IMG/VR virus record: IMGVR_UViG_3300033405_000002
Location: 243,595 to 307,594 of that record
DNA: 64,000 bases
DNA from: a virus
Taxonomy: Duplodnaviria; Heunggongvirae; Uroviricota; Caudoviricetes
Reading direction: 5' to 3' (one strand)
Part shown: in pieces, positions 30,461 through 64,000 of the stretch
How positions within the stretch are numbered: the stretch's first letter is position 1
How the letters are laid out: every line of letters starts with the position of its first letter
Program-made: the position numbers and the translations under genes
The notes under the pieces: generated by a model
Told to the model about the DNA's origin: nothing
The model's database searches: none
What the model saw: the letters and a program-made list of their open reading frames with translations, nothing else

Positions 30461-30461
30461 C

Positions 30462-30965
30462 ATGGACGAGTACAAGATCAGAATCAACACGGATGGAGAA
30501 GTAAGCTCTGAAAGGGAAGTCTCCGACCGTGAACGTGAGTCCAAACTGGACTACATTCTGGAACTGATTAACGACCCAGAGACGCCTCCGGGCCCGATCA
30601 AGCGCCTTATCGCAGCCGAGATCGCAAGCGTCAACCGCTTGATGATTCGCTACGGCAACGACGTGAGCATTCTTGAAGGACTCAAGATCAAGGCTCTTTC
30701 GGAACAAGTCAAGGGTCTGCGCGAACTTGGCAAGGAAGTTATGGAAGCGGACGTAATCGGCCGCAAGGACATCCTGAATTGGGAAGGCAAGAAGTTTCGT
30801 TACGCCATCGACGAGTATCGTGAAGGCGCGAAGCAAGCCATGCGTGAAGCTGGGTTGGATGACAGCACGATGAACAGCGTGCTCAACCACTGGCGCGATA
30901 TTATGTCGGCGCGTGAGCAGGATATTCGCCGAGCGATTGACAAGATGGATAACACGAAGTCGTAA
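30462..30965 (+). CDS. Helical protein (possible terminase small subunit-like; unverified)
   Basis: 167 aa all-alpha; functional guess from size and character only. Confidence 0.3.
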   Translation: MDEYKIRINTDGEVSSEREVSDRERESKLDYILELINDPETPPGPIKRLIAAEIASVNRLMIRYGNDVSILEGLKIKALSEQVKGLRELGKEVMEADVIGRKDILNWEGKKFRYAIDEYREGAKQAMREAGLDDSTMNSVLNHWRDIMSAREQDIRRAIDKMDNTKS

Positions 30966-33900
30966 ATGGAGAAACCAATGGACAAGGTGCTCAAAACAGC
31001 CGGAGTTAGTGGCAACAGCGTAGCTGGCAAAAGCTATCAGATGTTTACCGTCAGCGAAGAGTTGCTGGCTAAGGTGGTCGAAGCGGTGCAGGCGGGCGAG
31101 AAGGAAGCTCGTAGCTCCGGTATCGTCCAGTCGTTCGAAGTCTTCTATCACGGCTTCCGTCAGAACATCGCAATCGGACGCATTTATATCGTCCCCGCAT
31201 CGGTCTGCTCTGACCGTAAGAATTTCCCTGTGGCTCTGCTCTACGGCGCGATTGTGCGCGTGTTCGGCACGGGCGGCGAGGAACTTGCCGACCTGATCGA
31301 AAAGAAGATCGGTGACAGCGAGTTCGACGAATACTCTCAAGCTGACTTTGATTCAATCAAGAAAGACTTGTTCGTGGATGAGACAACGGGCAAGGAAGCC
31401 AGCCTTATCGTTTACGCACCCATGTGGGAGAACAAGCGCGAGTTCATCGCGTTTCACTTCACCAAGGACAGCGAGAAGCTGAAGCACAACCTGCGTCACC
31501 AAGTCTTCTCCGCTTACTACGATCCGCGTGTATCCAGCGCGTTTGACGCGATGATGACGAACGTGAACACCACCAAGGTTGATGTCACTGACATCACCCC
31601 GAAGATTCCGTTCCCGTTCCTTTCTGAAAATTTGCTGAAAGAATACCCGAAGCTTATCAAGCAGGCGGGTGACAAGCGTCCGAAAGTTCTGCTCAACCAC
31701 AAGACCGCTGATGCGGTCACTAAGGAAGTTCTTGAGCCAGCCGAGATGGACGTGTTCGACTCACTCAATCAAGCTCTTGAGAACAGCTTGACCCCAAGCG
31801 TTGACAGTGCCGAAGAAGCAGGCTACAAGACCCCATCCACCAAGGATGACGTGCCTCGCGTAGCATCCATGACGAAGGTTTCCTACGTAGCGCACTGCCC
31901 CGGACACAAGAACTCCAAGGGCGAGTCCGCTGAATGGTGTGTGAAGTCTCACAAGGACGACCACATTATCTCCAGCCACAAGACTGAAGCAGAAGCTAAG
32001 CAGCATCTTCAGGACATGCACGCACACAGTGGCAGCAAGCAAGCCGCCGATGGCACGGTTGAGGAGAATCCGCAAGCGGCGCACGAAACCCCGGTTACGA
32101 ACGTTGGGCCGGGAACTGAAGCCGAGAAGTTGCAGAAGAACACCGTCCAAGGTATCAAGGACGGCCCGAAGGATGTTGGGCGCAGCGGTCAGCCGCCAAT
32201 TGGGATTCCGATTGACGAAACGGGTGTGCCTCGCCGCGAAGGTGAGAAGCAGCCCAAGGCGGCAAAGAGAACCAAGGGCATGATCCCGACGATGGACATT
32301 CGTCCTGAGATCGGCAAGAAGAACGACATGTCCAAGCTGGAGATGGACAGATTCAGGAACGGCGGATACGTGGAGCGTGAGCACCCGGAAGGCATTCGTC
32401 AGTTCTGCGCTGATTTAGGTAGCGACAAGCAAGCAGGCGACGCGCTTCGTGACCACGCCAAGCAGCTTCAAGCTGGCGGGTACGGTGACCAGCCGCTTGA
32501 GAAGTCGGCGACCGATAAGTGGGGAAATGCTAAGGTCTCGATCAACTTCCCGAAGAAGGCAGCCGACGACTTCACACGCGCCTACATCGAAGCCGCTCTT
32601 TGGTCTTCGACGGACAACTCTACGCCTAGCGGCGGCGAGTCTCTGGATAAGAACTACGGCCCGGAAGACATCGCGCCTGAGTCTCTGCGTGAGATCGGGC
32701 AAGTTTGTCAAGAGTTCCAGCGCGAGAACGCTGAGCTTCTTCAAGAAGCATATCAGCGTCCCGGCTATGGACGTAAGGGACAGTGGAGTTCCGAAGCTCA
32801 GGCAGGACATGACTTCTGGTTGAGCCGCAACGGTCACGGGACAGGTTTCTGGGATCGTCAAGCACTTGAAGAAGGTGGGCTTGGAGACAAGTTGCACGCA
32901 GCCGCGAAAGCTTACGGTGAGTCTGATCCGTACATTGGCGACAATGGAGAAATCTACTTCTACGAAGAGAGCGGCAAAGGCAAGCCGCCCGCAGAAGTTC
33001 AGGCGAGCTACGTAGCGAGCAAGATGGGCAAAATCGTGGACTCCGATTGGGGACATGAAGTTGCATCCGACGCGGCGAAGAAAGCACGTGCCAAGAAAGA
33101 ATCCAACCTTGATAAGTTCCGCAGCAAGGAAGCAGTGTCTCTGGACATTGACTCTATCTGGGACGAAATCACGGAAGACATGGGGCCAGCCCCGATCATC
33201 GAACTCGAACACAACCCGGACAACCCCGCACCTTCGAACACTGAAGAAGCTGGGCCGAGTTTTGGAACTGAAGGCGAGTCCGAGAGTGAAGCGCCGAGCG
33301 AAGAAAAGAAGCCATCCGTTGCGCCGCGTAAGCGTGACGTTGGCGATCTGCCGGAAGCGATGCGCAGTGACGAGCCAGAAGATGACAAGTCAATGACCGA
33401 CTCTGAAGCTGACGCACAGGAAGACAGCACGCCAGAAGATGAACCAAAATGGCACACGTCCGCTCATTTCGCGGATTTCGTGGACGAAGTTTACGAAGAC
33501 ACGAACAATGAAGACGAAGTTCCTGAAGGTTATCAGCGCGTGAATTGTGACCAGTGCGAGATGCTTTCGATCAACGGAATCCCCTGCCATGAGCAAGGGT
33601 GCCCGAACAGCAACTCCCGCTGGGATGCCGATTCACAGAGTTGGATCAAGCAGCGCGAATGCCGCGAATGCGGCGGGACCGTGGACGCAGATGATCCTTG
33701 CTGTAACGCACCGTTTGAAGAAGACGACGAGATCGTGACATTCGGTGACCAAGAGGAAGATGAGCACGAAGCATCGGCAAAGACAGCAAGCGGTCATCCG
33801 TATGACGTGTTTGTCAACGGTGTTTGGGCGAATCGTGTGTTCTACGATGAGCCAGACGCCGCAGATGATGTGAAGCGCAGCTTGATTAACCATGACGGTT

Positions 33901-35447
33901 ACTATCCGGGCATCGAAGTTGAGCCGGGTGGGGTGAACATCCCGCACGGTCAATGCTGGACGGAAGAAGAACTCCAGATGGGTCACCGCGACCGTCGCCG
34001 TCGCCGTGGTTCGAATAAGAACGCGGACACCGCTGACAACCCAGCCAACGAAAAGGGCGGGGAAGGCGCAATGGACCCGAAGACCAACAAGGACAAGGCT
34101 AAGACCGCTGATACAGCCGACAACGAGTATGACATCGACGCAGCGCCGAAGCCGAAGGACAAAGAGCTTGGTCAGTCTCCAACGGTAGAGTGCCACAAAA
34201 AGACCGATGAAAAAGGTCAAGTGTACGCAAGCAAGAAGAAGGCGGACACAGCCGACAACCCAGCAAACATGGCTGGCGGCGATGGCGCTATTGCAGTGAA
34301 GGATCGTGCAGTGGTTAAAGACACAAGCGGCCCGACGCCGGACAACACCAAGGCAGCTTCCAAGAAGAAGGCGGAAGCGGTCTCCGGCGACATCGCAGAA
34401 GCCAAGTCTGAAGTTGACTATTGCAAGTCCGAAGTTGCGGATGAGCCAAGAGCCACGGACACCGTGAACCCGGAGCACTTTGCTGGGTATGACGATGATT
34501 TGGTTTGCGAGATTTGTCCAAGCCCTGTTGGTGAAGACGTTGGCAAGCCCGGAATTACATGCAAGGGTTGCGGCATGACTCTGTGCAGCAAGGCGTGCCT
34601 TGACTCGCACTACAAGTCTTCACCGGAATGCGAACTTGAAGCCAAGAAGGTGAGCGCGGATGTTTCAGGCGACATGTCTGAAGCGAAGTCCGAACTCAAC
34701 TACAACAAGGCAGATATGGCAAACGAGCCACAAGCTACGCAAGTGACGGCTCCAGTTGACATGGAACAGAAAACGGCGGAAGACATCTCCGGCGATATGT
34801 CCGAAGCGTCATCCGAAGTTGACTACAACAAGTCGCAGATTGCAGACGAACCAGCGGCGGAAGACACGGTTAACCCAGAACATTTCGCTGGCAGCAAGAA
34901 AGCTGACAAGGGCGTATGCAGTGAGTGCGGGAGACAGCGCACGCTTGGCCCGAACGGTATGTGCCATGAGTGCGAACAGAATGAGCGCGACAACCAAGGC
35001 GTGAAATCTTCTTCCAAGAAGAAGGCGCTAGGGCCGTGCATGTGCGGCGACACCAATTGCCCGTCCTGTGGAAGCGCGATGGGAACTTGGCCGCCAGCGG
35101 TATGTCCTCTCGATGGCAAACCCGCTGAAGATTGCACTGAGCACTTCGACGAGAACGGTGAAGTCCTTCCGCAGTTCGCGGAAGCGATGAAAGCCGCCGA
35201 AGAAGAATACATCGAGGCACAACGCAAGGCAGATCAGGGCTTGGCAGAATCAATTCAGGAAGACTCCCGCCTAGCGGAAGAATTCTGGAATGAGGAAGCA
35301 AAGGCTCAAGCAGAGCACGAGCACCGTGGTTCCAAAGAAGCAGCCGCAGGCGACGAGTTTCCAGAAGATGTGCAATTTGACTTCGGCGCAGGCGACCTAG
35401 CAGACATCGTGATGACTGAGGACGAAGACGCCGATGACACAAAGTAA
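30966..35447 (+). CDS. Large mosaic polyprotein with many KxA motifs and acidic peptide repeats
   Basis: 1493 aa; about 20 K-x-A motifs; AGHDFWLSRNGHGTGFWDR domain; Zn-binding modules; repeats DTADNPAN and SGDxxEAxSExDY. Confidence 0.8.
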   Translation: MEKPMDKVLKTAGVSGNSVAGKSYQMFTVSEELLAKVVEAVQAGEKEARSSGIVQSFEVFYHGFRQNIAIGRIYIVPASVCSDRKNFPVALLYGAIVRVFGTGGEELADLIEKKIGDSEFDEYSQADFDSIKKDLFVDETTGKEASLIVYAPMWENKREFIAFHFTKDSEKLKHNLRHQVFSAYYDPRVSSAFDAMMTNVNTTKVDVTDITPKIPFPFLSENLLKEYPKLIKQAGDKRPKVLLNHKTADAVTKEVLEPAEMDVFDSLNQALENSLTPSVDSAEEAGYKTPSTKDDVPRVASMTKVSYVAHCPGHKNSKGESAEWCVKSHKDDHIISSHKTEAEAKQHLQDMHAHSGSKQAADGTVEENPQAAHETPVTNVGPGTEAEKLQKNTVQGIKDGPKDVGRSGQPPIGIPIDETGVPRREGEKQPKAAKRTKGMIPTMDIRPEIGKKNDMSKLEMDRFRNGGYVEREHPEGIRQFCADLGSDKQAGDALRDHAKQLQAGGYGDQPLEKSATDKWGNAKVSINFPKKAADDFTRAYIEAALWSSTDNSTPSGGESLDKNYGPEDIAPESLREIGQVCQEFQRENAELLQEAYQRPGYGRKGQWSSEAQAGHDFWLSRNGHGTGFWDRQALEEGGLGDKLHAAAKAYGESDPYIGDNGEIYFYEESGKGKPPAEVQASYVASKMGKIVDSDWGHEVASDAAKKARAKKESNLDKFRSKEAVSLDIDSIWDEITEDMGPAPIIELEHNPDNPAPSNTEEAGPSFGTEGESESEAPSEEKKPSVAPRKRDVGDLPEAMRSDEPEDDKSMTDSEADAQEDSTPEDEPKWHTSAHFADFVDEVYEDTNNEDEVPEGYQRVNCDQCEMLSINGIPCHEQGCPNSNSRWDADSQSWIKQRECRECGGTVDADDPCCNAPFEEDDEIVTFGDQEEDEHEASAKTASGHPYDVFVNGVWANRVFYDEPDAADDVKRSLINHDGYYPGIEVEPGGVNIPHGQCWTEEELQMGHRDRRRRRGSNKNADTADNPANEKGGEGAMDPKTNKDKAKTADTADNEYDIDAAPKPKDKELGQSPTVECHKKTDEKGQVYASKKKADTADNPANMAGGDGAIAVKDRAVVKDTSGPTPDNTKAASKKKAEAVSGDIAEAKSEVDYCKSEVADEPRATDTVNPEHFAGYDDDLVCEICPSPVGEDVGKPGITCKGCGMTLCSKACLDSHYKSSPECELEAKKVSADVSGDMSEAKSELNYNKADMANEPQATQVTAPVDMEQKTAEDISGDMSEASSEVDYNKSQIADEPAAEDTVNPEHFAGSKKADKGVCSECGRQRTLGPNGMCHECEQNERDNQGVKSSSKKKALGPCMCGDTNCPSCGSAMGTWPPAVCPLDGKPAEDCTEHFDENGEVLPQFAEAMKAAEEEYIEAQRKADQGLAESIQEDSRLAEEFWNEEAKAQAEHEHRGSKEAAAGDEFPEDVQFDFGAGDLADIVMTEDEDADDTK

Positions 35448-38400
35448 GTACGCAATCAAGGGCATTCACGTTTTCTTCGGCGGCAAGCTACACACCGCCA
35501 AGGATTACGTCGATGCGTCCATGCAGTTCACTGGTTGGCGTGATGCGAACGGCTTAGGCGCGTCCGATCTGAGCGCCAAGGACGGCACAATCTACGTTGA
35601 CGGCGAAAAGAAAGCTCGTGTGTCATACAACGGGCGAATCTGGGACTTGGCAACGGGTTCCTCGATCAGCGCCAGCCTGCGCGACAAGTGCAATAAAATC
35701 AGCAAGATGAACCTGCCAAGGGCTATCGCCGAAATGGAGAAGCTGCTGGATCAGACCGGATCGCAAGAAGCACGCGATGCCGTCAACTACCTGCGCGAAA
35801 TGGCGGGCATGGAACCGCTGAAGTCAAAGCAGGAAAAGATTCCCGGCATGGGCGAGCCGAAAGCTCAGCCGAGCGGTGCTCTTGTTGTGGTGCCTGCTAA
35901 CGCATTGGTTATGCCGGACAATGCCGCTTGGACGAACCGCTTCAAGATCAAGTCCGAATCTTCAGATCGCATGTATACCATCGCCCAGAACAAGAAGGGA
36001 CGTTTCTGGGGTTGCGATTGTCCCGGCTGGGTTGGTCACGGTGGTCAACAGTGCAAGCACCTTCGTGCATTGGGACTTCCCGGTAACCGCAAGCCGTTTG
36101 AAGCATCGCTGAAACTCCCGGCTGGCGGCGGCGCGAAAGAAGAACCAAAAGAAGAGAAGCGCTACGAACAGCAGCGTGTGTTTACCAGACCGCCACAACA
36201 GGAGTCAGAAGGTGGACTAGCGGTAGTTCGCGTGCCGTCCGACTCTGAAATTATGCCGGACAACGCAAGCTGGACAAACCGTTTCCAGATCAAGTCCGAA
36301 ACATCTGATCGCCTCTATACAATCGCGCAGAATAAGCACCGCAAGTATTGGGCTTGTAGTTGCCCCGGCTGGATCGGGCACCGTAAGTGCAAGCACCTGA
36401 CTGCGCTTGGACTGCCGAACAAAGAACAGCCGTTCGAGGCAACATTGAAGCAAGGTAGCAAAAAGATGGGTGCAGGTAGCTGGCTCGATCCTGAAGGCAA
36501 ATTACCGCCAGCGCCAGACTATTTTAACCAGAACTACGAACGAGTAGGGGACAACAAAGCAAGATGCAAGCGCTGTGGCGAGGACGTTATTTGTAACATC
36601 GTTGGGCTAGGGGAGCACGACAGGATGGCTCACCCTAAGAAAACGAGTGCTGAACTTATGCACAGTGACAACGATTTGAATCTGAAAATGGAACCTGCTA
36701 CACCGACCAGCGCACCGCAAGTGCCGGGGCCGGAAGCTGGGCCGAGTAACGATGAGTTGCACGCCAGCGGACACGCAGAAAACGGCGAGAATGGTTCTCC
36801 GGTATTCGACGGCAAGATGAAGCACCCGGAGCGCCAAAACGTGAATGCAATCCGTGAAGCGCTTGAGACTCAGGTTGAGATGGAAGTTGGTAAGCCCATC
36901 CAGCAGAAGCAAGAAGAGATGGCGATTAAAGAAAAGGTTCAGGATGCGGCGATGGCAAAGGGTCTCGAACCCGGTCAAGTCGCACCGGGCGCGGCGGAAG
37001 TTACCGCCAAGCCGGGGACACAGATCATCATCAATGTGGCATCCGAGAATATCGAAGCTCCGTCCATCGGCGGTGAACACCAAGACGGTGCCACAGCCGG
37101 ACATGCTGGCGGTGCATTTGGAGGTACTGACTTGGAAGGCCCATCATTCCACGTAGGATTCGTGCTCAAGGGACACCACCGTGAAGTGTCGTTTTCGTCA
37201 CTCGCGGCGGCGGACAAGTTTGTTAAGGAAGCTACCACGAAGTTCAAGATCGCTGGCAACTGGACGATGAAGTGCCCATGGTGCGGCGGGCAAGCATCGA
37301 AAGACAAGCCAATGGACACGTGGAAGTGCGACTGCGGTTGGACTTCGGACAAAGACTCGAAGAAGGCGGACGGTCCTATCCCTATGCGCGATCAAAAGCA
37401 GGCGGCTGATGCCGATCCCGCAAAGCGCCAGCTTGTGCTCGAAATGCTCAAGCAGGGCCCAAAGACGACCGGAGAACTGGAAAAAGCCCTAGGCGGTGGT
37501 AAGTACACCAACTTAGCTTACCCGGTCATGCAGGCGCTCGCCCAAGAAGGCTTGGTCAAGCACAAGAAGATGCGCTGGGAACTCAAGCAAGCCAGTGAGA
37601 TGACTTGGCATGAAGCCAAGGAAGTGTTCGCTAAGAACGCAGGCTACCTCACCATTGATGAAGTGAAGAAGGCTGGTCAAGAGTACCTGAAGATGGTGCG
37701 CACCGCAGCTATCCGTGTGTCACAAGGACAGGACGATCAGGGATTCCACATGCTGGTTGATATGAACGGACGTGAATATGTTCTGCGTGGTCAAGATGCA
37801 GATGCGTTCCGCCGTGAGTATGCTGCGATCCCGAAGCCGGAAGCCGCAGTCAACAAGTTGGTTGAGAAATACCTGTGGAAGTTGCAGCCGTACAAAAAGC
37901 AACAGATTCAGCACCCAACGCCGGACAAAACCCGCGCTGAAGGCTTGGCTGATTCGGATGCTTACTGGTCTGGTCACGAAAAAGGCCCGAACGACTACAA
38001 ACGCTACATGACTCCGGGTGGTTGGGCGAAGGGTCAGCACGCATCGAAGAACGCGTACTACGATCCAGAAGGCGTTGAAGGCTACAGCAACTACAGCACG
38101 TACTACATGCACGTTCTGATGCACAACGAGCCGATGTCTGACAACATCATGCACCAATTGGTGGAGCACGCCATTGAAACTGGTGAGACCGCTGAGCAAC
38201 TCGGTCAAAAGTATCAGAAGTTTTTCAAGAAGCAGTTGCGCCAGATGAAGCGCGAGCACGACGAGAACGCGGCTGAAATCCGTCAAGATCGTGGTGCGCA
38301 CGAGCGCCGTCAGCTAACTGGCGAACCGTTGCCGTCCACAGGTGAGTATGCAAAGGACATGGCGAACGAGCTTTGGGACATGCGCCACGAAGTCGGTATG

Positions 38401-39453
38401 GCTACGGTGGAAGAACCATTCCAAGAGCCGAACTGGACGGAGATCGCCGAGACCGAGCTTGAGAACGAACGTGCAGAACGCGGCATTGAGCCGGAGTCCA
38501 AGACGATCACCGACAAGGACAAAGAGCTAGGTAAAAGCATGGGAATCAAGATGGAGTCCTCGCGCAAGAAGGCAGGAGAAGGTATGGCAAAAACAGAAGA
38601 GCAACTCGAAAAGGAAGCAGGATTCAATTTCTTCTTCCCCGGACAGGTACTCAAAGAGTTCTACCCGGAAATCCAGCATGAAATCGTGGATTACCCGAAC
38701 GCCACGAACCAACCGATGAACACGGTGAACCCGGAGATCGTCGGCGAGACGCCGCAAGGCGACCTCGAAGGTATGCTTGACAGCGCACTGGACACGTCCG
38801 TGGTTGAAATGATCCAGTTACCGGGAGACATCGGTGATGTTGAGCCGCTAGAAATGGCGGCGTCCAAGCAAGCGGCAGATTACGTTTCCACCGACGTCGG
38901 GGGGAGCATGGGCATTGGTCGCGACGGCAAACCTGAAGTTCTCGAAGGCGCACCGCTCCGCAAAGAGAACGACATCCGTGGCTACATGTTCACGGACGAG
39001 TTCTACGGTCAATATGATGGCGTTAATGGCGCAGCGTTGCAGGTTGCCAGCATGAAGACGGCAGCCGGGGACGAGCCAAGACAGTTCGCTATGTTCTTGA
39101 AGCGTGTCTGCGGAGAAATCTGTGCAACGATGATCGCAGCGTTCAAGGTTACGAGCCGTCCGTTACTGGACAAGGTTCCGGGCGTTGGTGAAATCCAGCT
39201 AGATCAGATCGAACAAGGCTCACAGCCTATGCCGATGGGCGTTTCCACGCAAGGTGGTCGCGTGAAATACCTGATGGACAAGCTGAATGACGGCGACATC
39301 AAGGCAGCAATCAACGAAGCGTGGGCGCAAGGCGCGGTGTGGCATGACGGCGCTAACGGCGGATTTGTGTATGAAGTATTCGTCCGCCCAGAGACAATCG
39401 ACACGGACAGCATGAAGATGGTCTACAAGTTCGTGTGCGGCACGAGAGAATAA
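35434..39453 (+). CDS. Large mosaic polyprotein with tandem SWIM Zn fingers and KxA motifs
   Basis: 1339 aa; two CxCPGW...CKHL repeats, a wHTH-like segment and Zn ribbons. Confidence 0.8.
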   Translation: MTQSKYAIKGIHVFFGGKLHTAKDYVDASMQFTGWRDANGLGASDLSAKDGTIYVDGEKKARVSYNGRIWDLATGSSISASLRDKCNKISKMNLPRAIAEMEKLLDQTGSQEARDAVNYLREMAGMEPLKSKQEKIPGMGEPKAQPSGALVVVPANALVMPDNAAWTNRFKIKSESSDRMYTIAQNKKGRFWGCDCPGWVGHGGQQCKHLRALGLPGNRKPFEASLKLPAGGGAKEEPKEEKRYEQQRVFTRPPQQESEGGLAVVRVPSDSEIMPDNASWTNRFQIKSETSDRLYTIAQNKHRKYWACSCPGWIGHRKCKHLTALGLPNKEQPFEATLKQGSKKMGAGSWLDPEGKLPPAPDYFNQNYERVGDNKARCKRCGEDVICNIVGLGEHDRMAHPKKTSAELMHSDNDLNLKMEPATPTSAPQVPGPEAGPSNDELHASGHAENGENGSPVFDGKMKHPERQNVNAIREALETQVEMEVGKPIQQKQEEMAIKEKVQDAAMAKGLEPGQVAPGAAEVTAKPGTQIIINVASENIEAPSIGGEHQDGATAGHAGGAFGGTDLEGPSFHVGFVLKGHHREVSFSSLAAADKFVKEATTKFKIAGNWTMKCPWCGGQASKDKPMDTWKCDCGWTSDKDSKKADGPIPMRDQKQAADADPAKRQLVLEMLKQGPKTTGELEKALGGGKYTNLAYPVMQALAQEGLVKHKKMRWELKQASEMTWHEAKEVFAKNAGYLTIDEVKKAGQEYLKMVRTAAIRVSQGQDDQGFHMLVDMNGREYVLRGQDADAFRREYAAIPKPEAAVNKLVEKYLWKLQPYKKQQIQHPTPDKTRAEGLADSDAYWSGHEKGPNDYKRYMTPGGWAKGQHASKNAYYDPEGVEGYSNYSTYYMHVLMHNEPMSDNIMHQLVEHAIETGETAEQLGQKYQKFFKKQLRQMKREHDENAAEIRQDRGAHERRQLTGEPLPSTGEYAKDMANELWDMRHEVGMATVEEPFQEPNWTEIAETELENERAERGIEPESKTITDKDKELGKSMGIKMESSRKKAGEGMAKTEEQLEKEAGFNFFFPGQVLKEFYPEIQHEIVDYPNATNQPMNTVNPEIVGETPQGDLEGMLDSALDTSVVEMIQLPGDIGDVEPLEMAASKQAADYVSTDVGGSMGIGRDGKPEVLEGAPLRKENDIRGYMFTDEFYGQYDGVNGAALQVASMKTAAGDEPRQFAMFLKRVCGEICATMIAAFKVTSRPLLDKVPGVGEIQLDQIEQGSQPMPMGVSTQGGRVKYLMDKLNDGDIKAAINEAWAQGAVWHDGANGGFVYEVFVRPETIDTDSMKMVYKFVCGTRE

Positions 39454-55313: not shown

Positions 55314-55889
55314 ATGGGTAAGGGATATATCAAGCAAAAGAATGCAATGAAGAAGCTCTACCTGAACCAAGCGGTGAAGGAAATCGAGCGCCTTGAAGCG
55401 GAGAACAAAGCACTCAAGGAAGACCCTAACACTGTCATCGGTCAGTTCATCGGACAGTTCCGTGAGATGTATTCCCAGAACAGTCGCTTGTCTACGTTGT
55501 CCGCTTGTCTCATCCAGAAGCTAGGAGACAAGGTTACGCTGAGCAAAGCTGAGATGGAACAGTTCACATCCAAGCGCATCAACATCAAATGGGAAATTCC
55601 AGACGGCGTGGAGCCGAAGGACGCCACGGAGTTCATCTTCACTTACGAGCTTCAGGAAGTCCAGCCGCCAGTGCAGCCGCAGCCGGAGCAAGTTGAATGC
55701 ACCGACCCGAACTGCTCTCTGCCTAAAGACCTCAAGCACACGCATACCGTGCCTGTGGCACCGCCGACAGAAGACCCCACTGTGACTGTAAATGAAGTCC
55801 CATCCCCGCTCGAAGAGATTGAGCCGGGAGATGTCGTTAACGTCAATGGGGAAGATTGCACGGTTACGTCAGTAGAGCACAACGGCTAA
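55314..55889 (+). CDS. Hypothetical coiled-coil protein
   Basis: ATG 55314 with GGAG. Confidence 0.7.
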   Translation: MGKGYIKQKNAMKKLYLNQAVKEIERLEAENKALKEDPNTVIGQFIGQFREMYSQNSRLSTLSACLIQKLGDKVTLSKAEMEQFTSKRINIKWEIPDGVEPKDATEFIFTYELQEVQPPVQPQPEQVECTDPNCSLPKDLKHTHTVPVAPPTEDPTVTVNEVPSPLEEIEPGDVVNVNGEDCTVTSVEHNG

Positions 55890-55963
55890 ACCTTCGGCAA
55901 TCCCCGTTTGCCAATCTAAAAATTTTCATCAAACGCGTTTCGTCAGTAGAGGCGAAGCGCGTT

Positions 55964-56734
55964 ATGTTTTTCAAAAACCCCTTCAAGAAGACAACTTTCA
56001 AGGCATATTGGTGGGCAGAAGTCCCGAATTTCGGGGACGCCCTAGCCCCACTTTTGCTCGAACACTTCGCCGAAATTAAAGTGGAATGGGGAAGTATCAG
56101 CCATTCGTCCATCGCGTCTATCGGCTCGATTCTTGAGCACATCCCGCCGCTCTGGGACGGCTATATCCTTGGTTCTGGGCGCTTGATGCCGGATTCCCGG
56201 CTGCACTTAGTCCAGCGCAGAACAGGCGTAAGCGCTAAGATTCTGTCTGTGCGCGGCCCGTTGACCGCACGCGGTATTCCCGGCAGCTTTGGGATCGGCG
56301 ACCCCGGTATCCTCGCGGACGAGTTGGTTGGTTTCCAAGAGAAGCAGTGGGATTTAGGGATTCTCCCGCACTGGCAGGATACGGAGCTTGCACCCCGGTT
56401 CAAGAAAATGATCCCAGAAAAATTTTCGATCCATGTTATCAATCCGTCTGATGATCCGCTTGATGTTGTCCGGCAGATCGGGGCCAGCCGCAGACTTGTG
56501 ACCTCATCGCTTCACGGCATGATCGTGGCGGATGGCTTTGGTGTTCCGCGCCGCGTTGAGACCTGTCCCGCTATGGCGCGAGACGGCGGGGACTTTAAGT
56601 TCCGAGATTACTGCGCGTCAGTTCAGATGAAGTTCGAGACTGGCAAAATGATGGAGCCTGTGCGGTTCCGCGTTGAGGATGTGAAGTTTCAAGTCTACGA
56701 CGCCTATCGCGCTTTGGGGAAGGCACTGAAATGA
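55964..56734 (+). CDS. Polysaccharide pyruvyltransferase family protein (ExoV-like)
   Basis: NFGDAL, SIGSIL, VRGPLT, GDPG, SSLHGMIVADGFGVP. Confidence 0.85.
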   Translation: MFFKNPFKKTTFKAYWWAEVPNFGDALAPLLLEHFAEIKVEWGSISHSSIASIGSILEHIPPLWDGYILGSGRLMPDSRLHLVQRRTGVSAKILSVRGPLTARGIPGSFGIGDPGILADELVGFQEKQWDLGILPHWQDTELAPRFKKMIPEKFSIHVINPSDDPLDVVRQIGASRRLVTSSLHGMIVADGFGVPRRVETCPAMARDGGDFKFRDYCASVQMKFETGKMMEPVRFRVEDVKFQVYDAYRALGKALK

Positions 56735-57642
56735 CTGGGCACTTGGTTTTAGAAATCTTGGGAGGGGCGGTTGCCATGCTGGGAATCTTCGCCACGCTGT
56801 TTCGCCGGAAGAAGGGCTACGGGATCAGTATCTTGATTCCGTTCCGCTGCTTGGACAAGACAAACCAGCGCTGGAAGAACGTGGAATGGCTGAAGCGTTA
56901 CTGGGCGGCTCAGCTTCCCGGCGCGGAGATCATCATTGGCGAAGACTCTGAACTAGACAAGCCGTTCTCCAAGTCGGTCGCGGTAAACAATGCCGCTTCA
57001 AAAGCGAAAGGCGATATTTACGTGATCGTTGACGCAGACGGTTACATTTCGCCGGACGCTGTGTTACACTGCGCAGAAGAAATCCGTGCCGCTCGTAAGA
57101 AGGGAAAAAGGCTGTGGTTCGTACCATATCGTCAGTTCTATCGGTTGACTGAAGACGCATCGCGTCAGTTGCTTGAATCTGACCCGGCAAACCCGCTCGA
57201 ATTTCCGTGTCCGCCGAGGGCTAGTATGATGCAGAGCGACACTGATCCAACTATGGGGCACTGGTATGGGGCTATGATTCAGATCATGTCTCGTGAAGCC
57301 TTCGAGTTTGTAGGCGGTTGGGACCCACGCTTCCGTGGTTGGGGCGGTGAAGATCACGCCGCGATGCGAGCGATGGACACGATCTACGGGCCGCACAAGA
57401 CGCTTCCCGGTCAAGTGCTGCACGTCTGGCATCCGCAGTTAGGGCCGCAAGGTGTCGAAAATTCCGTGCATTGGAAGAACCGCATGTGGGAGAATCAAGA
57501 CACAGTGCAAGTGAACAACAAGCTGTCATGGCGCTACTATCATGCTTCGAACAAGCCTGATCTCATGCGCAAACTGTTAAACGAGGGGCACAAGCTGATT
57601 CCCGTTACCGGGAACCCGCCGCGCCGAAGAAACTCCATGTAA
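56731..57642 (+). CDS. Membrane-anchored GT2/GT7-type glycosyltransferase
   Basis: N-terminal TM, ISILIPFR, FSKSVAVNNAA, DAD, GGWDPRFRGWGGED, HVWH. Confidence 0.88.
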   Translation: MTGHLVLEILGGAVAMLGIFATLFRRKKGYGISILIPFRCLDKTNQRWKNVEWLKRYWAAQLPGAEIIIGEDSELDKPFSKSVAVNNAASKAKGDIYVIVDADGYISPDAVLHCAEEIRAARKKGKRLWFVPYRQFYRLTEDASRQLLESDPANPLEFPCPPRASMMQSDTDPTMGHWYGAMIQIMSREAFEFVGGWDPRFRGWGGEDHAAMRAMDTIYGPHKTLPGQVLHVWHPQLGPQGVENSVHWKNRMWENQDTVQVNNKLSWRYYHASNKPDLMRKLLNEGHKLIPVTGNPPRRRNSM

Positions 57643-58958: not shown

Positions 58959-59547
58959 CGCATACGACGCCTATCACTTCTTGTACAGTCACCCGAAGTT
59001 CATGCTGCGGGAACGATACGAGATCACCCCGGAAGAATACGACAAGGGTTTGGCTGACGGCTATTTGGTCACCAAGGATCGTGGCGGCAAGTGCTACCGT
59101 GAACAACGGCACCTGTTCCGCCACGCCATTGAACACAACCTTGACATCTTCTACGCCAAGGTGGATGAAACCGGGCGCGTCAACGATGACCGCCAAAAGA
59201 ACGTGAACGTTGAATGCTGGCTGGAATTCGGTCAACTCGAATGGGGCTACATGTCAGGCGGTGAGTACGATTGGGACACTGAAACTGGTCTGCTCAACTA
59301 CCACGACGTCGATCTTGACACCGGGGGCCCGACGTTTGACGAGGCTCTGATAAGCCTCGCCAAACTCGTGCTCGAACATCATGGGGACTACGAAGACTTG
59401 CCGTATAAAGAGCAACGTGCTAAGCAGTGTGGAGAGACAGTTCCATGTGCTGACTGTCGGGATGCGAAGGCGTGGGCGCGTCGTCATGGTCTGACGCCAA
59501 AAGACGCTCCTGACGTTTCACCCGCACCTTCCACTTCCGAAGAGTAG
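58942..59547 (+). CDS. Hypothetical protein
   Basis: 201 aa with GGAG RBS. Confidence 0.75.
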   Translation: MHQINNAYDAYHFLYSHPKFMLRERYEITPEEYDKGLADGYLVTKDRGGKCYREQRHLFRHAIEHNLDIFYAKVDETGRVNDDRQKNVNVECWLEFGQLEWGYMSGGEYDWDTETGLLNYHDVDLDTGGPTFDEALISLAKLVLEHHGDYEDLPYKEQRAKQCGETVPCADCRDAKAWARRHGLTPKDAPDVSPAPSTSEE

Positions 59548-60016
59548 TGTTCGCCAGCTTCAGCTTGCGCTCCCACTCACGGACTTTGCTTTGTGCCTTG
59601 GCAAGCGCCTTGGCGCGTTTCTCAGTCAAGGACGGCTTGACAGGTGCAGCCTTAACGCCGATAGGATAGTCCAGCGCGTAAGCGTACCGCTCACGCCATC
59701 CCGGACCCCAAGTGTATCGCGTGGAATTCATCTCGCGGTGCTTCATTCCCTTAGCGTGCGCCAGTTCGTGAGCGATCACCATAGCCAGCGCCACAGGGTC
59801 AAGATTGGTGCGCGGCAGATTGAGCCGCATACGGACGTTGGGGTCTTTCATCGTGCCGTAGTAACACCAGCCGCCGATGTTGCCGTTGCGCCGATACTTG
59901 ATTGTGATGCGTCCCCGGTTTTTCAACTGACCGGGATCAAGCTCGTCCTGCGCAACTCGATAAACCAGCCGCATGATGTCCCGCGTATCCCAATGCGTGT
60001 GGTTGACAATTTTCAT
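59420..60016 (-). CDS. Zincin-like metalloprotease (HExxH) with C-terminal coiled coil
   Basis: VIAHELAHAKGMKH; ATG 60016 with AGGAG; overlaps the convergent gene by 128 nt. Confidence 0.75.
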   Translation of the reverse strand: MKIVNHTHWDTRDIMRLVYRVAQDELDPGQLKNRGRITIKYRRNGNIGGWCYYGTMKDPNVRMRLNLPRTNLDPVALAMVIAHELAHAKGMKHREMNSTRYTWGPGWRERYAYALDYPIGVKAAPVKPSLTEKRAKALAKAQSKVREWERKLKLANTTLRKWKVRVKRQERLLASDHDDAPTPSHPDSQHMELSLHTA

Positions 60017-60219
60017 AGCGTCTCCTGTTCTGGCATTACGTCCACAATGGTGACAGTACATTTGATGCTGGTGATACGCTTTTTGGCAACCTTTTTTAAG
60101 AGATTGCCGAAGGCGCGACCAATGGCTACCTTACTGGTTGAGCCTTTGGCACGTCCGGTTTGGAAGATGTTTCCGCCTTTCAATTCTGGAAACATCGCTT
60201 CAACAGTGGCAAGCTTCAT
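60013..60219 (-). CDS. Small basic early protein
   Basis: ATG 60219 with AAGGGGG; ATGA overlap with the next gene. Confidence 0.75.
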   Translation of the reverse strand: MKLATVEAMFPELKGGNIFQTGRAKGSTSKVAIGRAFGNLLKKVAKKRITSIKCTVTIVDVMPEQETL

Positions 60220-60358: not shown

Positions 60359-63300
60359 TTAAACGTAGCGGTCGTTCTTTGTAACCTGCAATGGGGCGTC
60401 ATAACGCACCGATTCGTAGATGCGCAGGCAGTCTTCCCATGTGCCCTGTGAGTTTTGCCATTCGGCGTAGAGTTCATCTTCCTTGCGCTTGAGCGTGTAC
60501 GTCAAAGGCTCCGCAACGGAGTTCTCGTCAGGTTCCAGATTTGCCTTATTGAAGCGGGATAGCGGTACGCGGATGATCGCTTCTTCTGCTTCGGCCTCGT
60601 AGTCTAGTTCTGCATCCACGGCTTCTTCAGCGTAGGTCGCGGCGATTCTTTCTGTGCCCCAATAGCTCCCGGCTTCCATCACGCCGTCAAGCATGATCTT
60701 TTCAGCGATAGTAGCGGTTGTGCCATGGTACAAGTAAACTTCGGCGGCGGCTTCCTTGTTGAAGTCATCACTCTCGGCTTCTTCTTCATCGTACTCGCGT
60801 CCTTCGGAGTCTTGGATCGCGTGCTTTAACTCATGGTCAATGCTTTTACCGATCCCCATTGGGTAGTCGCGGTGAGCTTCAAGATCAATCAGCACGACCG
60901 GGTATCCGCATGTCCCGTCAATGTACATCGCAACCGCGTTGAGATGAGACAGGTCAACATCCCAGAGTTCAAACGGTTGCTTGGTACGTTGGTAGAGACG
61001 CTGCGCTACGCCAACCGCAAGCTCGGCAAGCTCCGGGTCGCTATTCGCACGCGGCTCATAATCCCAAGAAGGTTGGTAGTCATGGTGTCCGTTGTCTTCC
61101 GGCGCACGCCAGAGTAGTCCCGGTTCATCGGCTGAAGCCGTCTTCTTCCCGATTGCTGCGAGTCCGGCTTCCGTAATTACACGGTCGTCCTTCCAGACTT
61201 CAGGATATTTGTTGGCACGCGCAACCCAACCGCGCTTCTCCATAGCTTCCATCGTCCGCGTCGGGACATACCAGATCGTGTTGCCGTCTTCTCCCTTGGG
61301 GATTCCGAAAGTATCATAACTTGTGACCGGATCAACTGTCCAGAATCCTCCCTTCACACGGTAGAGCGCCTTGCCGTCCGCCATGTGCTGTAAACCGTCA
61401 AGTTGCGTGGGCGTAGGCTTGCTGGCAGCCGTTACCCATCTTTTCTCCGGTTCCGGCTTTTGCCAATCTCCATAGCTCCGTCTGATGCCTGTGATTTCGA
61501 CATCCGTTCCGGGTTTGACGTAGACTTCTTTTTCACCCCAGCAGAATCTCTTGTTCTGCAAGAACGTTTCTTCCCAATCAACCGCGTCTTCACGAATTTG
61601 TGTGCGAAGAAGGGTAAGATTGTTTCGATCTCCGCGCATAGCATCTTCGGCTAAGCCTTCATCCACAGACCAGAACGGTCCAACATTTTCAAAATTGATC
61701 TCTTCAGGCGCGACCCCAAGTCCGCGATACACAGTAAGCGGGAATTTCAACTGCGCCTTGAACTCGTCAAATTTTACTTTATCTTCAGCGAGCGAACCAT
61801 ATTTTTTAACGTCAGCCCACAGGTCTTCGGGATGCGTGGCGGTGTCACGTCTGATTTCTTTGATCTTTGGAACGCTTTGCTCGAAGATACCAATGGCGGT
61901 GTGTCCCACGTTTCCGTGTCCTTCGACCTGTGCGTAGTCGTTGATCTTTACGCCGTCGTAGCCCATCTTAGCAAGCTGTTCAAACTTCCCGTATTCGCGA
62001 TATTGAGGATCGAGCAAATCACCTTCGTTCTGCCCGCCTTCCGTCATATCGAAAACATTCAACGGTTGTTGAACTTCAAACACGCACACGGTGCCTTCTT
62101 CAAACTTGTTTGGCAGCAGTTCTTCATGACCGTTTTCCATGTGCAGCTTCAAACGGTACTGTCCGCGATGGTAGTTGTCTTCAGGACGCTCCGGCTCGTA
62201 GCCGTATTCCGCCAGCTTCTTCTTGACATACTGCATCAAGGCTTCTTCCCGGCCCACCTGCCAATCGTTGGCGGCTTTGTAATAGTCGTCCTGCTTCTCG
62301 AACTTGGTCTTGTCCGGGTACGGATGCGGATACAAAGTCTCAAGCAATTTCGGTGCGCGGTAGGAGTTAGGGCGTCCGGTTGCGTCGTACTTGATGTCAG
62401 TGTACTCGAACCCCAGTTGCTTCTGTAGGTCTGCGACTCCACTGCGGTCATTCGGGCAGGAAGCGATGGACTTTAACGTCGCCATCATCTCCAAACCAGC
62501 AGGGGGAATGTACGTGCGAGCAAATGTTGGACTTTGCGTAGTCCACAGGCAACCGTCCGATGCAGGTTTGTGCGTATGAATTTCATCTTCGCCGATGCCA
62601 CGATACAACAGGGTTCCGGCTGGAATGGTCAACCCAGCACGCGCCGGGGCGGGCGTTGCGGCAAACAAGGATTTCTGTGGCTCTGCGTTCGCCAGTGTCC
62701 ATGCTGGGACTGTGCTTTCATGTCCCGCATCCCATTTGACCACGATCAATGGGCGCATATCCGGGCTTGTGTCGTTTGGGGCTGGTCTAAGTACCTTCTT
62801 GACTTCACCTTTCAATCGTAGATGTTTGTCCAGAAAAGTTGGAAGGTAAAAAACGCGTGTCCCACGTTTGATTTCATCGTAACCCATAGCGGTTACAAGC
62901 TTCGACGCGATCTTGCCGGGGATTTCCTTTTCGCCGGACGCCTCCCGTTTGGACATACCGAACGGCACACTGGCGTAAACATCCAACAGCTTCTCTTCTT
63001 TCGGCTCTTCCTTTTTCTTTTCCTGCTTTGGTTTGCGCGGCAAGTCGGCGGGAATCGGGGACACCGGAGCGACTGGTTCTACGCGAACCGATGCGGTGAA
63101 GCGCGGGTCTCGCGGATTAAAGGACTGTGCCCATACGGATTTGATCTGGTTTGGCTCAAACGCAACCCATGCGGTGCCGCCTTCTACCACATTCTTGTAG
63201 TGAATACCGTCATAACCCGCCGCCTCAAGGCGCTGGCGTGCTTGGCTGGCAAGTTCATACGCAGCGTCGCGGAGTAGGTCGTCGGAGCCTTCACCCCCAC

Positions 63301-64000
63301 GCGCTTCTTCAAACAAGAAGCGGTTCTTTTCGGTGCGGAAGGCTTGGTCATTTTCGTACTTGTTGTACCACTCGTTGATCGCCGCTTCGCCCTCGTTAGT
63401 GTCTGCATACGGTTGAATGCCGTCCGCTTCCATTGCGATTTCGAGTGCGTCCCCACTGACTTTCCCTTGGTTGATGAACTCGCGCAAGTTGTGTTCAGAG
63501 CCGAAGTCCTTTGGGTTAGTGATACGCAAGTATACTTGAATAACGCGGGGCATCTCTTTGTCCCCTTCGTATCGTGTGCTTGTCCAGCCTTTACCTTCGG
63601 CAAACTGATTTGCTACATTAGGCTGCACGGCAAAGTGAGCGCCCATTAGCGAAGTAGGGTCAGCGCCACTACCTGAAGACATCGGCTGCCCTTCGTAATC
63701 ACTGTCATCAACAGGTGGGCCGTCCACGCTGAACGTGTCAAAATTTACGGAAGAGCGCGTGCCATGGTACACCGGGAGCGGGTTGCCGTTTGAATCCACA
63801 ACCTTGCTGCCGTCGAACCATTGGCGGAACTTCGCGTCTTGCGAATTCGGGAACATCTCTTTCTGTTCCGCACCCTTTTTCCGTTTCTCCGGCTCGTCTT
63901 CAATGTCATAACCGCCATCAGACTCGTAGTCATTCTCGACTGGCTGCGGTGTGGGGTTCCCGTTTACACCTTTCCACATGTACTGATCGGACTCATCTCC
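60359..64000 (-). CDS. Polyvalent protein with four ADP-ribosyltransferase-like domains, SH3-like/QxxLF module, wHTH and HExxH peptidase; 5' partial
   Basis: Frame open to the window edge; FRQWFDGSKVVDSNGNPLPVYHGT (ART-PolyVal type), LLYRG, VYRG...FWS...EKE, LYHGT, HELKH. Confidence 0.82.
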   Translation of the reverse strand, partial: GDESDQYMWKGVNGNPTPQPVENDYESDGGYDIEDEPEKRKKGAEQKEMFPNSQDAKFRQWFDGSKVVDSNGNPLPVYHGTRSSVNFDTFSVDGPPVDDSDYEGQPMSSGSGADPTSLMGAHFAVQPNVANQFAEGKGWTSTRYEGDKEMPRVIQVYLRITNPKDFGSEHNLREFINQGKVSGDALEIAMEADGIQPYADTNEGEAAINEWYNKYENDQAFRTEKNRFLFEEARGGEGSDDLLRDAAYELASQARQRLEAAGYDGIHYKNVVEGGTAWVAFEPNQIKSVWAQSFNPRDPRFTASVRVEPVAPVSPIPADLPRKPKQEKKKEEPKEEKLLDVYASVPFGMSKREASGEKEIPGKIASKLVTAMGYDEIKRGTRVFYLPTFLDKHLRLKGEVKKVLRPAPNDTSPDMRPLIVVKWDAGHESTVPAWTLANAEPQKSLFAATPAPARAGLTIPAGTLLYRGIGEDEIHTHKPASDGCLWTTQSPTFARTYIPPAGLEMMATLKSIASCPNDRSGVADLQKQLGFEYTDIKYDATGRPNSYRAPKLLETLYPHPYPDKTKFEKQDDYYKAANDWQVGREEALMQYVKKKLAEYGYEPERPEDNYHRGQYRLKLHMENGHEELLPNKFEEGTVCVFEVQQPLNVFDMTEGGQNEGDLLDPQYREYGKFEQLAKMGYDGVKINDYAQVEGHGNVGHTAIGIFEQSVPKIKEIRRDTATHPEDLWADVKKYGSLAEDKVKFDEFKAQLKFPLTVYRGLGVAPEEINFENVGPFWSVDEGLAEDAMRGDRNNLTLLRTQIREDAVDWEETFLQNKRFCWGEKEVYVKPGTDVEITGIRRSYGDWQKPEPEKRWVTAASKPTPTQLDGLQHMADGKALYRVKGGFWTVDPVTSYDTFGIPKGEDGNTIWYVPTRTMEAMEKRGWVARANKYPEVWKDDRVITEAGLAAIGKKTASADEPGLLWRAPEDNGHHDYQPSWDYEPRANSDPELAELAVGVAQRLYQRTKQPFELWDVDLSHLNAVAMYIDGTCGYPVVLIDLEAHRDYPMGIGKSIDHELKHAIQDSEGREYDEEEAESDDFNKEAAAEVYLYHGTTATIAEKIMLDGVMEAGSYWGTERIAATYAEEAVDAELDYEAEAEEAIIRVPLSRFNKANLEPDENSVAEPLTYTLKRKEDELYAEWQNSQGTWEDCLRIYESVRYDAPLQVTKNDRYV

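Follow-up and report, generated by a model that had tools for sequence, protein, structure and literature searches.

ADP-ribosyltransferase-fold modules and their junctions in a polyvalent protein of an uncultivated phage

ADP-ribosylation is a central weapon for both sides of the conflict between phages and their hosts and, to our knowledge, its targets are known only for Alt, ModA and ModB of T4 as well as for a few toxins. We report the analysis of a gene encoding a polyvalent protein of 1,733 amino acids (aa), here called P0002, which lies partly within a 64,000-nucleotide stretch of DNA (the window; bases 243595-307594 of IMG/VR virus record IMGVR_UViG_3300033405_000002, an uncultivated phage of 332,300 bp with a CheckV completeness of 100%). 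The list of open reading frames and their translations gives a single minus-strand open frame that fills window positions 60359-64000 and runs past the right edge of the window. An original prediction, made by a model from the letters of the window, had read this frame as a polyvalent phage effector carrying four ADP-ribosyltransferase (ART)-like domains of apparently different clades, a peptidase and a winged helix-turn-helix (wHTH).

The polyvalent effector that was predicted is borne out by the eleven shuffled modules of P0002, two of which match the Pfam family ART-PolyVal, and the segment coordinates that had been proposed proved accurate to about 50 nt. The concept of an injected polyvalent effector with several ARTs is already published, and P0002 is a rich example of it rather than a new kind of system. 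What is noteworthy in P0002 is that we count five ART-fold domains of four families (the C-terminal domain, m11, being included as ART-like on indirect evidence), that three of these families are without a Pfam model, that one domain is of a type defined by an arginine, a serine and a Glu-x-Glu motif (R-S-ExE) and that another family shows a His-to-Arg switch within itself.

The gene and its module layout

The gene lies on the minus strand at genome positions 303953-309154 (L002:1954-7155). The part that falls in the window (60359..64000, minus strand) encodes aa 521-1733 plus the stop codon, and the start codon, at window-equivalent 65560, is an ATG at genome position 309154 with AAGGAA just before it. 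Recovery of the missing 5' end from beyond the window, which had been proposed as a check, adds 520 N-terminal residues that hold a second ART-PolyVal domain, a NUDIX domain and a GNAT-like module. Upstream, on the same strand, is a gene of 2,982 aa whose stop codon is overlapped by this ATG (ATGCCTGA), and the two giant genes are therefore probably a translationally coupled pair.

A homologue search combining a word index with exhaustive HMMER returned 779 proteins at E 0.001 or better, and module borders were drawn by BLAST and phmmer comparison of P0002 with 150-odd of them (159 collected). Similarity to the homologues falls into separate blocks whose order differs from protein to protein, by which eleven modules (m1 to m11) were delimited. 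The shuffling is visible in m1 (aa 1-105), a module of about 100 aa to which no family was assigned, which is N-terminal in P0002, P0004 and P0011, internal in P0005, P0008 and P0013 and C-terminal in P0006, and also in P0033, where m8 is directly followed by m11. The proteins with modules shuffled in this way come from metagenomic phage contigs and have 1,000-5,000 aa; a cluster look-up gave only uninformative names. A fold or family could be assigned to six of the eleven modules, and m1 and m6 to m11 are without a match in Pfam, PHROGs or NCBIfam.

ART-fold domains and their companion modules

Both ART-PolyVal domains score above the 31.2-bit cut-off of the family (PF18760). The match in m2 (aa 106-278) covers aa 111-265 with 46.8 bits (E 7e-12), and that in m5 (aa 557-842, window 63035..63892, minus strand) covers aa 589-812, at window 63796-63125, with 66.4 bits (E 6e-18); the latter is the first of the predicted ART domains, which had been placed at about 63850-63090. 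In an alignment of 12 sequences (A3) the active-site His of YHGT and Asp of YDG are invariant, and they are assigned to strands 1 and 5, respectively, by analogy with the published description. Between the two domains lie the NUDIX module m3 (aa 279-450; PF00293 at aa 302-417, 39.3 bits against a cut-off of 21.1, E 8e-10), in which the E-x2-E-E glutamates are present when the box is read by eye from the sequence and whose subfamily is not resolved by NCBIfam, and the small GNAT-like module m4 (aa 451-556), whose C-terminal end occupies window 63893..64000 (minus strand). The latter has only a weak, sub-cut-off match to Pfam Acetyltransf_10 (E 0.024) in P0002, moves as one unit and gives clear GNAT matches in the homologues P0005, P0008 and P0010.

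The second predicted ART-like domain (62620-61830) corresponds to the independent module m7 (aa 966-1258, window 61787..62665, minus strand). Its family has more than 100 homologues among the matches listed, mostly stand-alone proteins of about 300 aa, and two stand-alone relatives that were traced sit in phage-like contigs. The module is without a Pfam match and one of 60 relatives gives a weak match to ART-PolyVal; comparison with the ART-PolyVal alignment by hhalign reached 14% probability, with only the G-Y-D-G strand shared, and a profile search of the PDB returned no match. An AlphaFold2 (AF2) model made from an alignment of 60 sequences has a predicted local distance difference test (pLDDT) score of 92.9. 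When this was compared with 48,161 PDB representatives by VIA-align, a search independent of Foldseek, the matches were to MbcT (Z 10.1 over 142 aa, root-mean-square deviation (rmsd) 4.1), the catalytic domain of diphtheria toxin (Z 9.2) and ParT (Z 8.7), followed by RES toxins, PARPs and exotoxin A. The ranking down to Z 5 consists entirely of ART-superfamily proteins with one exception, an undescribed chain of the cyanophage A4 pre-ejectosome (Z 6.9). The nearest entries in a shape search of the ESM Atlas are RES, ART-PolyVal and PARP clusters, with RES on top. Foldseek against the PDB gave no significant match, none reaching E 0.001, and the ART assignment of m7, like that of m8 below, is made because of the VIA-align results and the consistency of the weak Foldseek rows.

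Judged by its model, m7 has an ART fold that carries a large insert and belongs to a family without a curated model, and the predicted ART fold can be stated with confidence. The insert comprises about 130 residues (model residues ~64-190) and includes a helix of 29 residues. Residues conserved through the family are a Trp, which is invariant, with a Tyr 11 residues on; an Asp and a Gln, both invariant, on a late strand; and also an Asn and a His. At the NAD-binding position of strand 1 (aa 987 of P0002), 50 of the 60 members have His and the ten nearest to P0002 have Arg; eight of these ten are embedded in proteins of ~480-2,480 aa. The RES toxins (MbcT, NatT, Xre-RES) and the diphtheria-type ARTs are thus the best structural matches of m7, which differs from both in showing no significant sequence similarity to them and in having its insert and its own set of conserved residues (W, Y, D, Q, N, H); it differs from the RES toxins also in being without an antitoxin partner and in the phage-like contigs of its stand-alone relatives. 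The model does not by itself distinguish transfer of ADP-ribose from degradation of NAD+, which the fold alone cannot tell apart.

The exceptional chain in the m7 ranking deserves separate record. It is chain B of PDB entry 9k3a, a solved virion ejection protein of the cyanophage A4 pre-ejectosome, and the m7 model aligns with its residues 1419-1606 (Z 6.9 over 112 aa). The paper on the structure of this pre-ejectosome makes no mention of an ART-like domain.

The third predicted ART domain, of R-S-ExE type and placed at 61740-61440, is m8 (aa 1259-1380, window 61421..61786, minus strand), which was modelled together with the module that follows it. For this, aa 1259-1472 were folded on an alignment checked for the placement of fragments (AF2, pLDDT 88); a single model for aa 1259-1733 was dropped, the MAFFT alignment behind it (A4) having stacked unrelated fragments. 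In the model, R1279 lies on strand 1 and S1298 on strand 2, and E1343-x-E1345 enters strand 5, the three sites falling on or at the model strands 17-23, 38-40 and 87-90. Among 13 aligned sequences (A5) the ExE motif never varies, nor do a Trp, a Gly and a Pro. All homologues that extend across the Arg of Y-R retain it, and the Trp is followed by Ser or Thr in ten sequences and by Ala in three. The small R-S-ExE family is present in P0002 and in at least seven related polyvalent proteins.

Structural comparison of m8 (model residues 11-116) by VIA-align gave TreTu (Z 7.3 over 96 aa), TreX (Z 6.8) and the ART-like domain of IcmQ (Z 6.8), and Foldseek gave cholera toxin A (probability 0.91, E 0.057), pertussis S1, the A chains of LT and LT-II, and Tpt1. 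The scores from both searches are each modest (Foldseek E 0.04-0.3, none reaching E 0.001 against the PDB), and all rows of appreciable probability, other than those to wHTH proteins, are ARTs. The conservation of the R-S-ExE residues on the expected strands and the matches of the fold mean that a reading of m8 as an R-S-ExE ART is supported at the level of motif and fold. Its nearest folds, over 96-97 aa, are TreX and TreTu and the A chains of the cholera, heat-labile and pertussis toxins, with which it has a catalytic-type motif in common; unlike these it is part of a phage protein and not a secreted toxin, and it has no relationship to them at the level of sequence. It has no match to Alt/VIP2 in Pfam, PHROGs or NCBIfam and could not be placed in that clade. 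An SH3 identity for m8 was considered and rejected, the PDB profile matches to SH3 reaching only E 0.3-1.5, which is not significant.

The wHTH had been predicted correctly. In the joint model, m9 (aa 1381-1472, window 61145..61420, minus strand; model residues 123-214) matches MarR, BpsR, MepR and PadR by VIA-align with Z 8.3-8.7 and rmsd 2.4-2.6 over about 70 aa, among dozens of mutually consistent rows, and on this model m9 is a MarR/PadR-like winged helix.

The HELKH zincin that was expected to follow is found in m10 (aa 1473-1600, window 60761..61144, minus strand) in so far as its motif is concerned: H-E-L-x-H is invariant in an alignment of 19 homologues (A7), together with a Gln three residues on and an E..AE string 12-16 residues past the second His, whose Glu residues are candidates for the third zinc ligand. 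The designation as a peptidase does not stand in the same way, being carried by the motif only; the Pfam matches are weak and to putative zinc peptidases (DUF5700, E 0.013). We regard m10 as a reasonable candidate for a zincin metallopeptidase. An alternative identification as a peptide deformylase was set aside, the PDB profile matches being insignificant.

The fourth predicted ART-like domain (60745-60400) is a module in its own right, the C-terminal mini-domain m11 (aa 1601-1733, window 60362..60760, minus strand) with its L-Y-H-G-T, Y-W-G-T and A-E-P motifs; its ART matches are all below threshold, and a significant profile match to confirm the prediction was not obtained. In 25 homologues (A2) the His is invariant and Y, G, T, W, G, E and P are nearly so. 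A PDB profile search gave nothing significant, and all 11 of its sub-threshold matches are ARTs aligned at the H-G-T strand, including Tpt1 (E 0.05-0.3) and PARP10. The language-model neighbours of a stand-alone homologue, P0081, are clusters of RNA 2'-phosphotransferase (Tpt1-like), PARP, Arr and Tox-ART-HYD1 proteins (0.91-0.94), and comparison with ART-PolyVal by hhalign gave 18% probability for a short motif match. From these sequence comparisons it is fairly likely that m11 has an ART fold, and the domain is probably a small ART of the H type.

The remaining module, m6 (aa 843-965, window 62666..63034, minus strand), had been labelled SH3, a putative domain at about aa 885-960, and bears REAS and KIAS motifs at its N-terminal end. 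It has no match in Pfam or NCBIfam and no homologue among the 159 collected proteins, and language-model comparison gives neighbours at 0.79 or below. Searched against the rest of the genome, aa 843-970 have as their sole similarity a 33-aa match (E 0.02) at window 2912-3013, within the open reading frame 2492-4873 on the plus strand, which is too weak to confirm the recurring 'SH3+QxxLF' module of which a separate early note had spoken.

A basic-x-Ala-small signature at module junctions

Many of the module families start or finish with a string consisting of a basic residue, any residue, an alanine and a small residue, and the separators listed in the original prediction (RFTAS, REASG, VTAAS, KKTAS and KEAAA) turn out to be real as a class. 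The test covered 24 homologous proteins, in which phmmer delimits 71 non-redundant module junctions. The motif [KR]-x-A-[ASGD] lies no more than 10 residues away from 53.5% of these, against 8.7% for random positions within those proteins (standard deviation 3.5, maximum 21%, 500 resamplings). Three control motifs were found at 4-16% of junctions and 5-6% of random positions, none of them exceeding its highest value in 500 resamples.

The strict motif has nine copies in P0002, five of which are at or near junctions. The m9/m10 junction is marked by K-T-A-S (aa 1473-1476, window 61133..61144, minus strand), where K-x-A-S-A opens the module in most of 19 homologues, and the m10/m11 junction by K-E-A-A (aa 1602-1605, window 60746..60757, minus strand), with K/T-x-A/S-A/S preceding the LYHGT strand in most of 25 homologues. 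The m8/m9 junction has V-T-A-A-S (aa 1376-1380, window 61421..61435, minus strand), kept as V/I-x-A/S-A/S in 11 of 13 homologues, and a variant of the signature, F-T-A-S (aa 821-824, window 63089..63100, minus strand), lies at the end of m5 and reads [FY]-T-A-S in the homologues (alignment A3).

The presence of [KR]-x-A-[ASGD] at the junctions suggests, from sequence, that a separate protease may cut there, beyond an embedded peptidase alone. Since a short motif marks the domain borders, the modules should be expressible singly. P0002 offers five compact ART-fold domains, one uncurated family of which has several hundred metagenomic relatives.

A related string was noticed elsewhere in the genome. 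The genome average for K-[KT]-A is 1.06 per 1,000 aa, and several other large proteins of the phage, encoded at window 28601-39453 and at genome 241045-243321, exceed it by a factor of 4 to 11; P0002 as a whole is not richer in this string.

Probable packaging, alternative readings and genomic setting

P0002 belongs to a block of effector genes on the minus strand, whereas the window's large genes for structural and cargo proteins are on the other strand. The upstream partner of 2,982 aa (L003:148-9096, genome 309147-318095, minus strand), just outside the right edge of the window, has four ART-PolyVal stretches, a GNAT domain, a 2H/LigT-like phosphoesterase with a weak Acb1-like signal, a Cys-rich block of CxxC repeats and an N-terminal LYHGT module that resembles m11. 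Upstream of it, on the same strand, are genes for an SprT-like protein of 132 aa (L003:9113-9511) and for a protein of 447 aa with InPase and RelA/SpoT domains (L003:9532-10875). The next gene downstream of P0002 (213 aa, window 59420..60061, minus strand) has weak SprT/YgjP-like zincin signals, both below cut-off (Pfam YgjP-like E 2.9e-4, SprT-like E 5e-3), and possibly belongs to the same block. An SLT domain is typical of ejected virion proteins, and the relative P0013 combines an SLT lytic transglycosylase with PARP/Tpt1 signals. The closest cultured relative is the Tunturiibacter phage Tunturi_5, whose gp273 (1,489 aa) has a NUDIX, three ART-PolyVal domains and a GNAT and is preceded by an InPase gene, the gene order being the same as in the phage studied here. 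As this cultured phage carries a shorter version of the P0002 architecture, packaging and cleavage become testable by virion proteomics.

We favour the reading that P0002 is a polyvalent protein of the kind defined by Iyer et al. 2017 (J Bacteriol 199:e00245-17; PMC5512222), encoded by a phage, which is packaged, cut at its linkers and injected to act against host NAD+/ADP-ribose biology and macromolecules, and, by analogy with described systems, we consider this reasonably probable. The protein would be made late and packed in the head together with the neighbouring polyvalent protein of 2,982 aa, and would be cut at the junction motifs by a head-maturation protease or by the embedded HExxH module, so that the released pieces would enter the host along with the DNA. 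Once there, the ART domains would use NAD+ to modify various host targets (proteins, nucleic acids or small molecules), or would merely consume it; the NUDIX domain would cleave ADP-ribose-type or other nucleotide diphosphate compounds, the GNAT would acetylate a target and the winged helix would bind nucleic acid. Taken together, these activities would bring about early host takeover and counter-defence, in analogy to T4 Alt and to giant-phage ejection proteins.

This reading is preferred because of the features of P0002 itself (two Pfam ART-PolyVal domains and a NUDIX, the shuffling of modules, the ART folds and the junction motif) and because of its setting, namely the ART-PolyVal, 2H and GNAT domains of the upstream protein, the SprT-like and InPase+RelA/SpoT neighbours, the SLT domain of P0013 and the gene order of Tunturi_5. 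The domains of the upstream genes (ART-PolyVal, 2H, GNAT, SprT-like, InPase and RelA/SpoT) are listed as typical of phage-type, virion-packaged polyvalent proteins (PMC5512222), and polyvalent proteins are predicted to be packaged and injected, with ARTs as their commonest enzymes (PMC5512222; PMC9503650). For giant phages, two reports describe ejection proteins that are cleaved by the prohead protease (PMC10052503, PMC7411985).

Several results weigh on the other side. Four of the nine strict motif copies in P0002 are inside domains, and K-x-A is not enriched across the whole of P0002; only the position-specific junction test is significant. A prohead protease was not found in the genome with Pfam S77 or S78, an absence that is not thereby shown in so divergent a phage. 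The polyvalent gene is neither fused nor adjacent to MuF or portal genes as far as could be seen, and the terminase gene is about 17 kb off. The embedded module m10 has no match to any curated peptidase family in Pfam or in a sequence search of the PDB, and the Nudix box is without two of its usual residues, having Met for the first Glu and Val for the Arg.

A rival reading has P0002 as an unpackaged, cytoplasmic multi-enzyme counter-defence protein that would be made after infection and would remain intact or be processed by its own HExxH module, in which case the junction motif would be merely a favoured flexible linker or the site of the embedded peptidase. That no MuF, portal or structural gene is adjacent, that a recognisable prohead protease was not found (Pfam S77, S78), that the gene block and the window's large structural and cargo genes are on opposite strands and that embedded metallopeptidases have been proposed as the processors of polyvalent proteins (Iyer et al., PMC5512222) all fit such a protein. 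We nonetheless judge it unlikely in view of the relative P0013, with its SLT domain of the kind found in ejected proteins, and of the InPase, RelA/SpoT, 2H and ART-PolyVal set, which the literature assigns to virion-packaged proteins.

The structural matches of m7 raise a different possibility, that P0002 is mainly a destroyer of NAD+/ADP-ribose signals. Here the RES-like m7, and perhaps other modules, would hydrolyse or phosphorolyse NAD+ or immune signals derived from ADP-ribose, and the NUDIX would complete the breakdown, so that NAD-dependent defence, of which Thoeris-type signalling is an example, would be weakened. In favour of this, m7 has its best structural matches in RES-domain toxins and the NAD+ phosphorylase MbcT, a NUDIX is fused in the same chain, the upstream protein has a 2H phosphoesterase with a weak Acb1-like signal, and such roles of viral Nudix and 2H domains have been noted in a review (PMC9503650). 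Depletion of NAD+, however, would normally hurt the phage as well, m8 resembles toxins that target proteins, ART-PolyVal is grouped with protein-modifying clades (PMC5512222), and a transferase is not separable from an NADase by similarity of fold; we regard this account as quite improbable.

It is very improbable that several of the ART-like modules lack catalytic activity and act in binding, as decoys or as bulk cargo of the head, with far fewer active enzymes left, for although the strand-1 His of m7 is replaced by Arg, the Nudix box is non-canonical and m11 has only 130 aa and no significant profile match, the candidate catalytic residues are invariant or nearly so in each family (ExE in A5; Asp and Gln in A1; His in A2; His and Asp in A3), which argues for selection on activity, and a strand-1 Arg is the normal NAD-binding residue of R-S-E ARTs.

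Returning to the packaged effector, a more ambitious form of it takes both giant genes together as a cassette of some nine or ten domains with the ART fold, drawn from four or more families, including the R-S-ExE ART and the His-to-Arg m7 family, each of which would be freed at the basic-x-Ala-small junctions, injected and directed at a different host target. We put this forward only tentatively. If functional, the His-to-Arg switch in the phage-fused branch of m7 would link both classical types of ART active site in one family.

T4 Alt is a head-packaged R-S-E ADP-ribosyltransferase that is processed by gp21, and had been cited in the original prediction. The logic proposed for P0002, of an ART carried in the head, trimmed by a protease of head maturation and injected so as to act on proteins of the host, is like that of Alt, as is the R / S / ExE arrangement of m8. 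No sequence relation was found, P0002 being without a sequence or family match to Alt, ModA or ModB in Pfam and PHROGs, and m8 has only about 120 aa; Alt is therefore an analogy only. A comparison may also be made with the E proteins of the giant phages SPN3US and phiKZ, many large proteins that are described as entering the head together with the genome, being cut at a short motif and passing into the host (PMC7411985, PMC10052503), as is proposed for P0002. Their cut site is A/S/G-x-E, whereas the junctions of P0002 are basic-x-Ala-small; no homology was found between them.

The closest comparison is with the polyvalent proteins themselves (PMC5512222). As in these, a phage encodes one long chain of many unrelated effector domains that are shuffled between relatives, with ART-PolyVal as the signature enzyme in several copies; NUDIX, GNAT and an HExxH module occur within P0002 and InPase, RelA/SpoT and 2H domains in the genes beside it. 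Three traits of polyvalent proteins, many (2-15) effector domains, encoding by a phage or conjugative element and the ART-PolyVal signature domain, are found in P0002. P0002 is unlike them in that most of its modules match no Pfam family, nor any of the LPD or MPTase-PolyVal families that stem from that study, in its R-S-ExE ART and [KR]-x-A-[ASGD] junctions, and in that a MuF or portal link was not seen. The presence of several ART domains in one chain had been thought unusual, which is not so: among the modifying domains of polyvalent proteins ARTs occur most often, and one protein may have as many as 12 of them (Iyer et al. 2017, PMC5512222). The part of that claim that does hold concerns the mixture of families, which is less usual and includes the R-S-ExE type, Alt/VIP2-type R-S-E ARTs not having been seen in genuine polyvalent proteins (PMC5512222).

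The window also contains genes for the large terminase and a tail protein, and most of its large proteins are without a PHROG match, which marks the source as a highly divergent jumbo phage. At a distance of a few kb from the effector block, genes for a pyruvyl-transferase-like protein and a family-2 glycosyltransferase adjoin one another on the plus strand (window 55856-57642).

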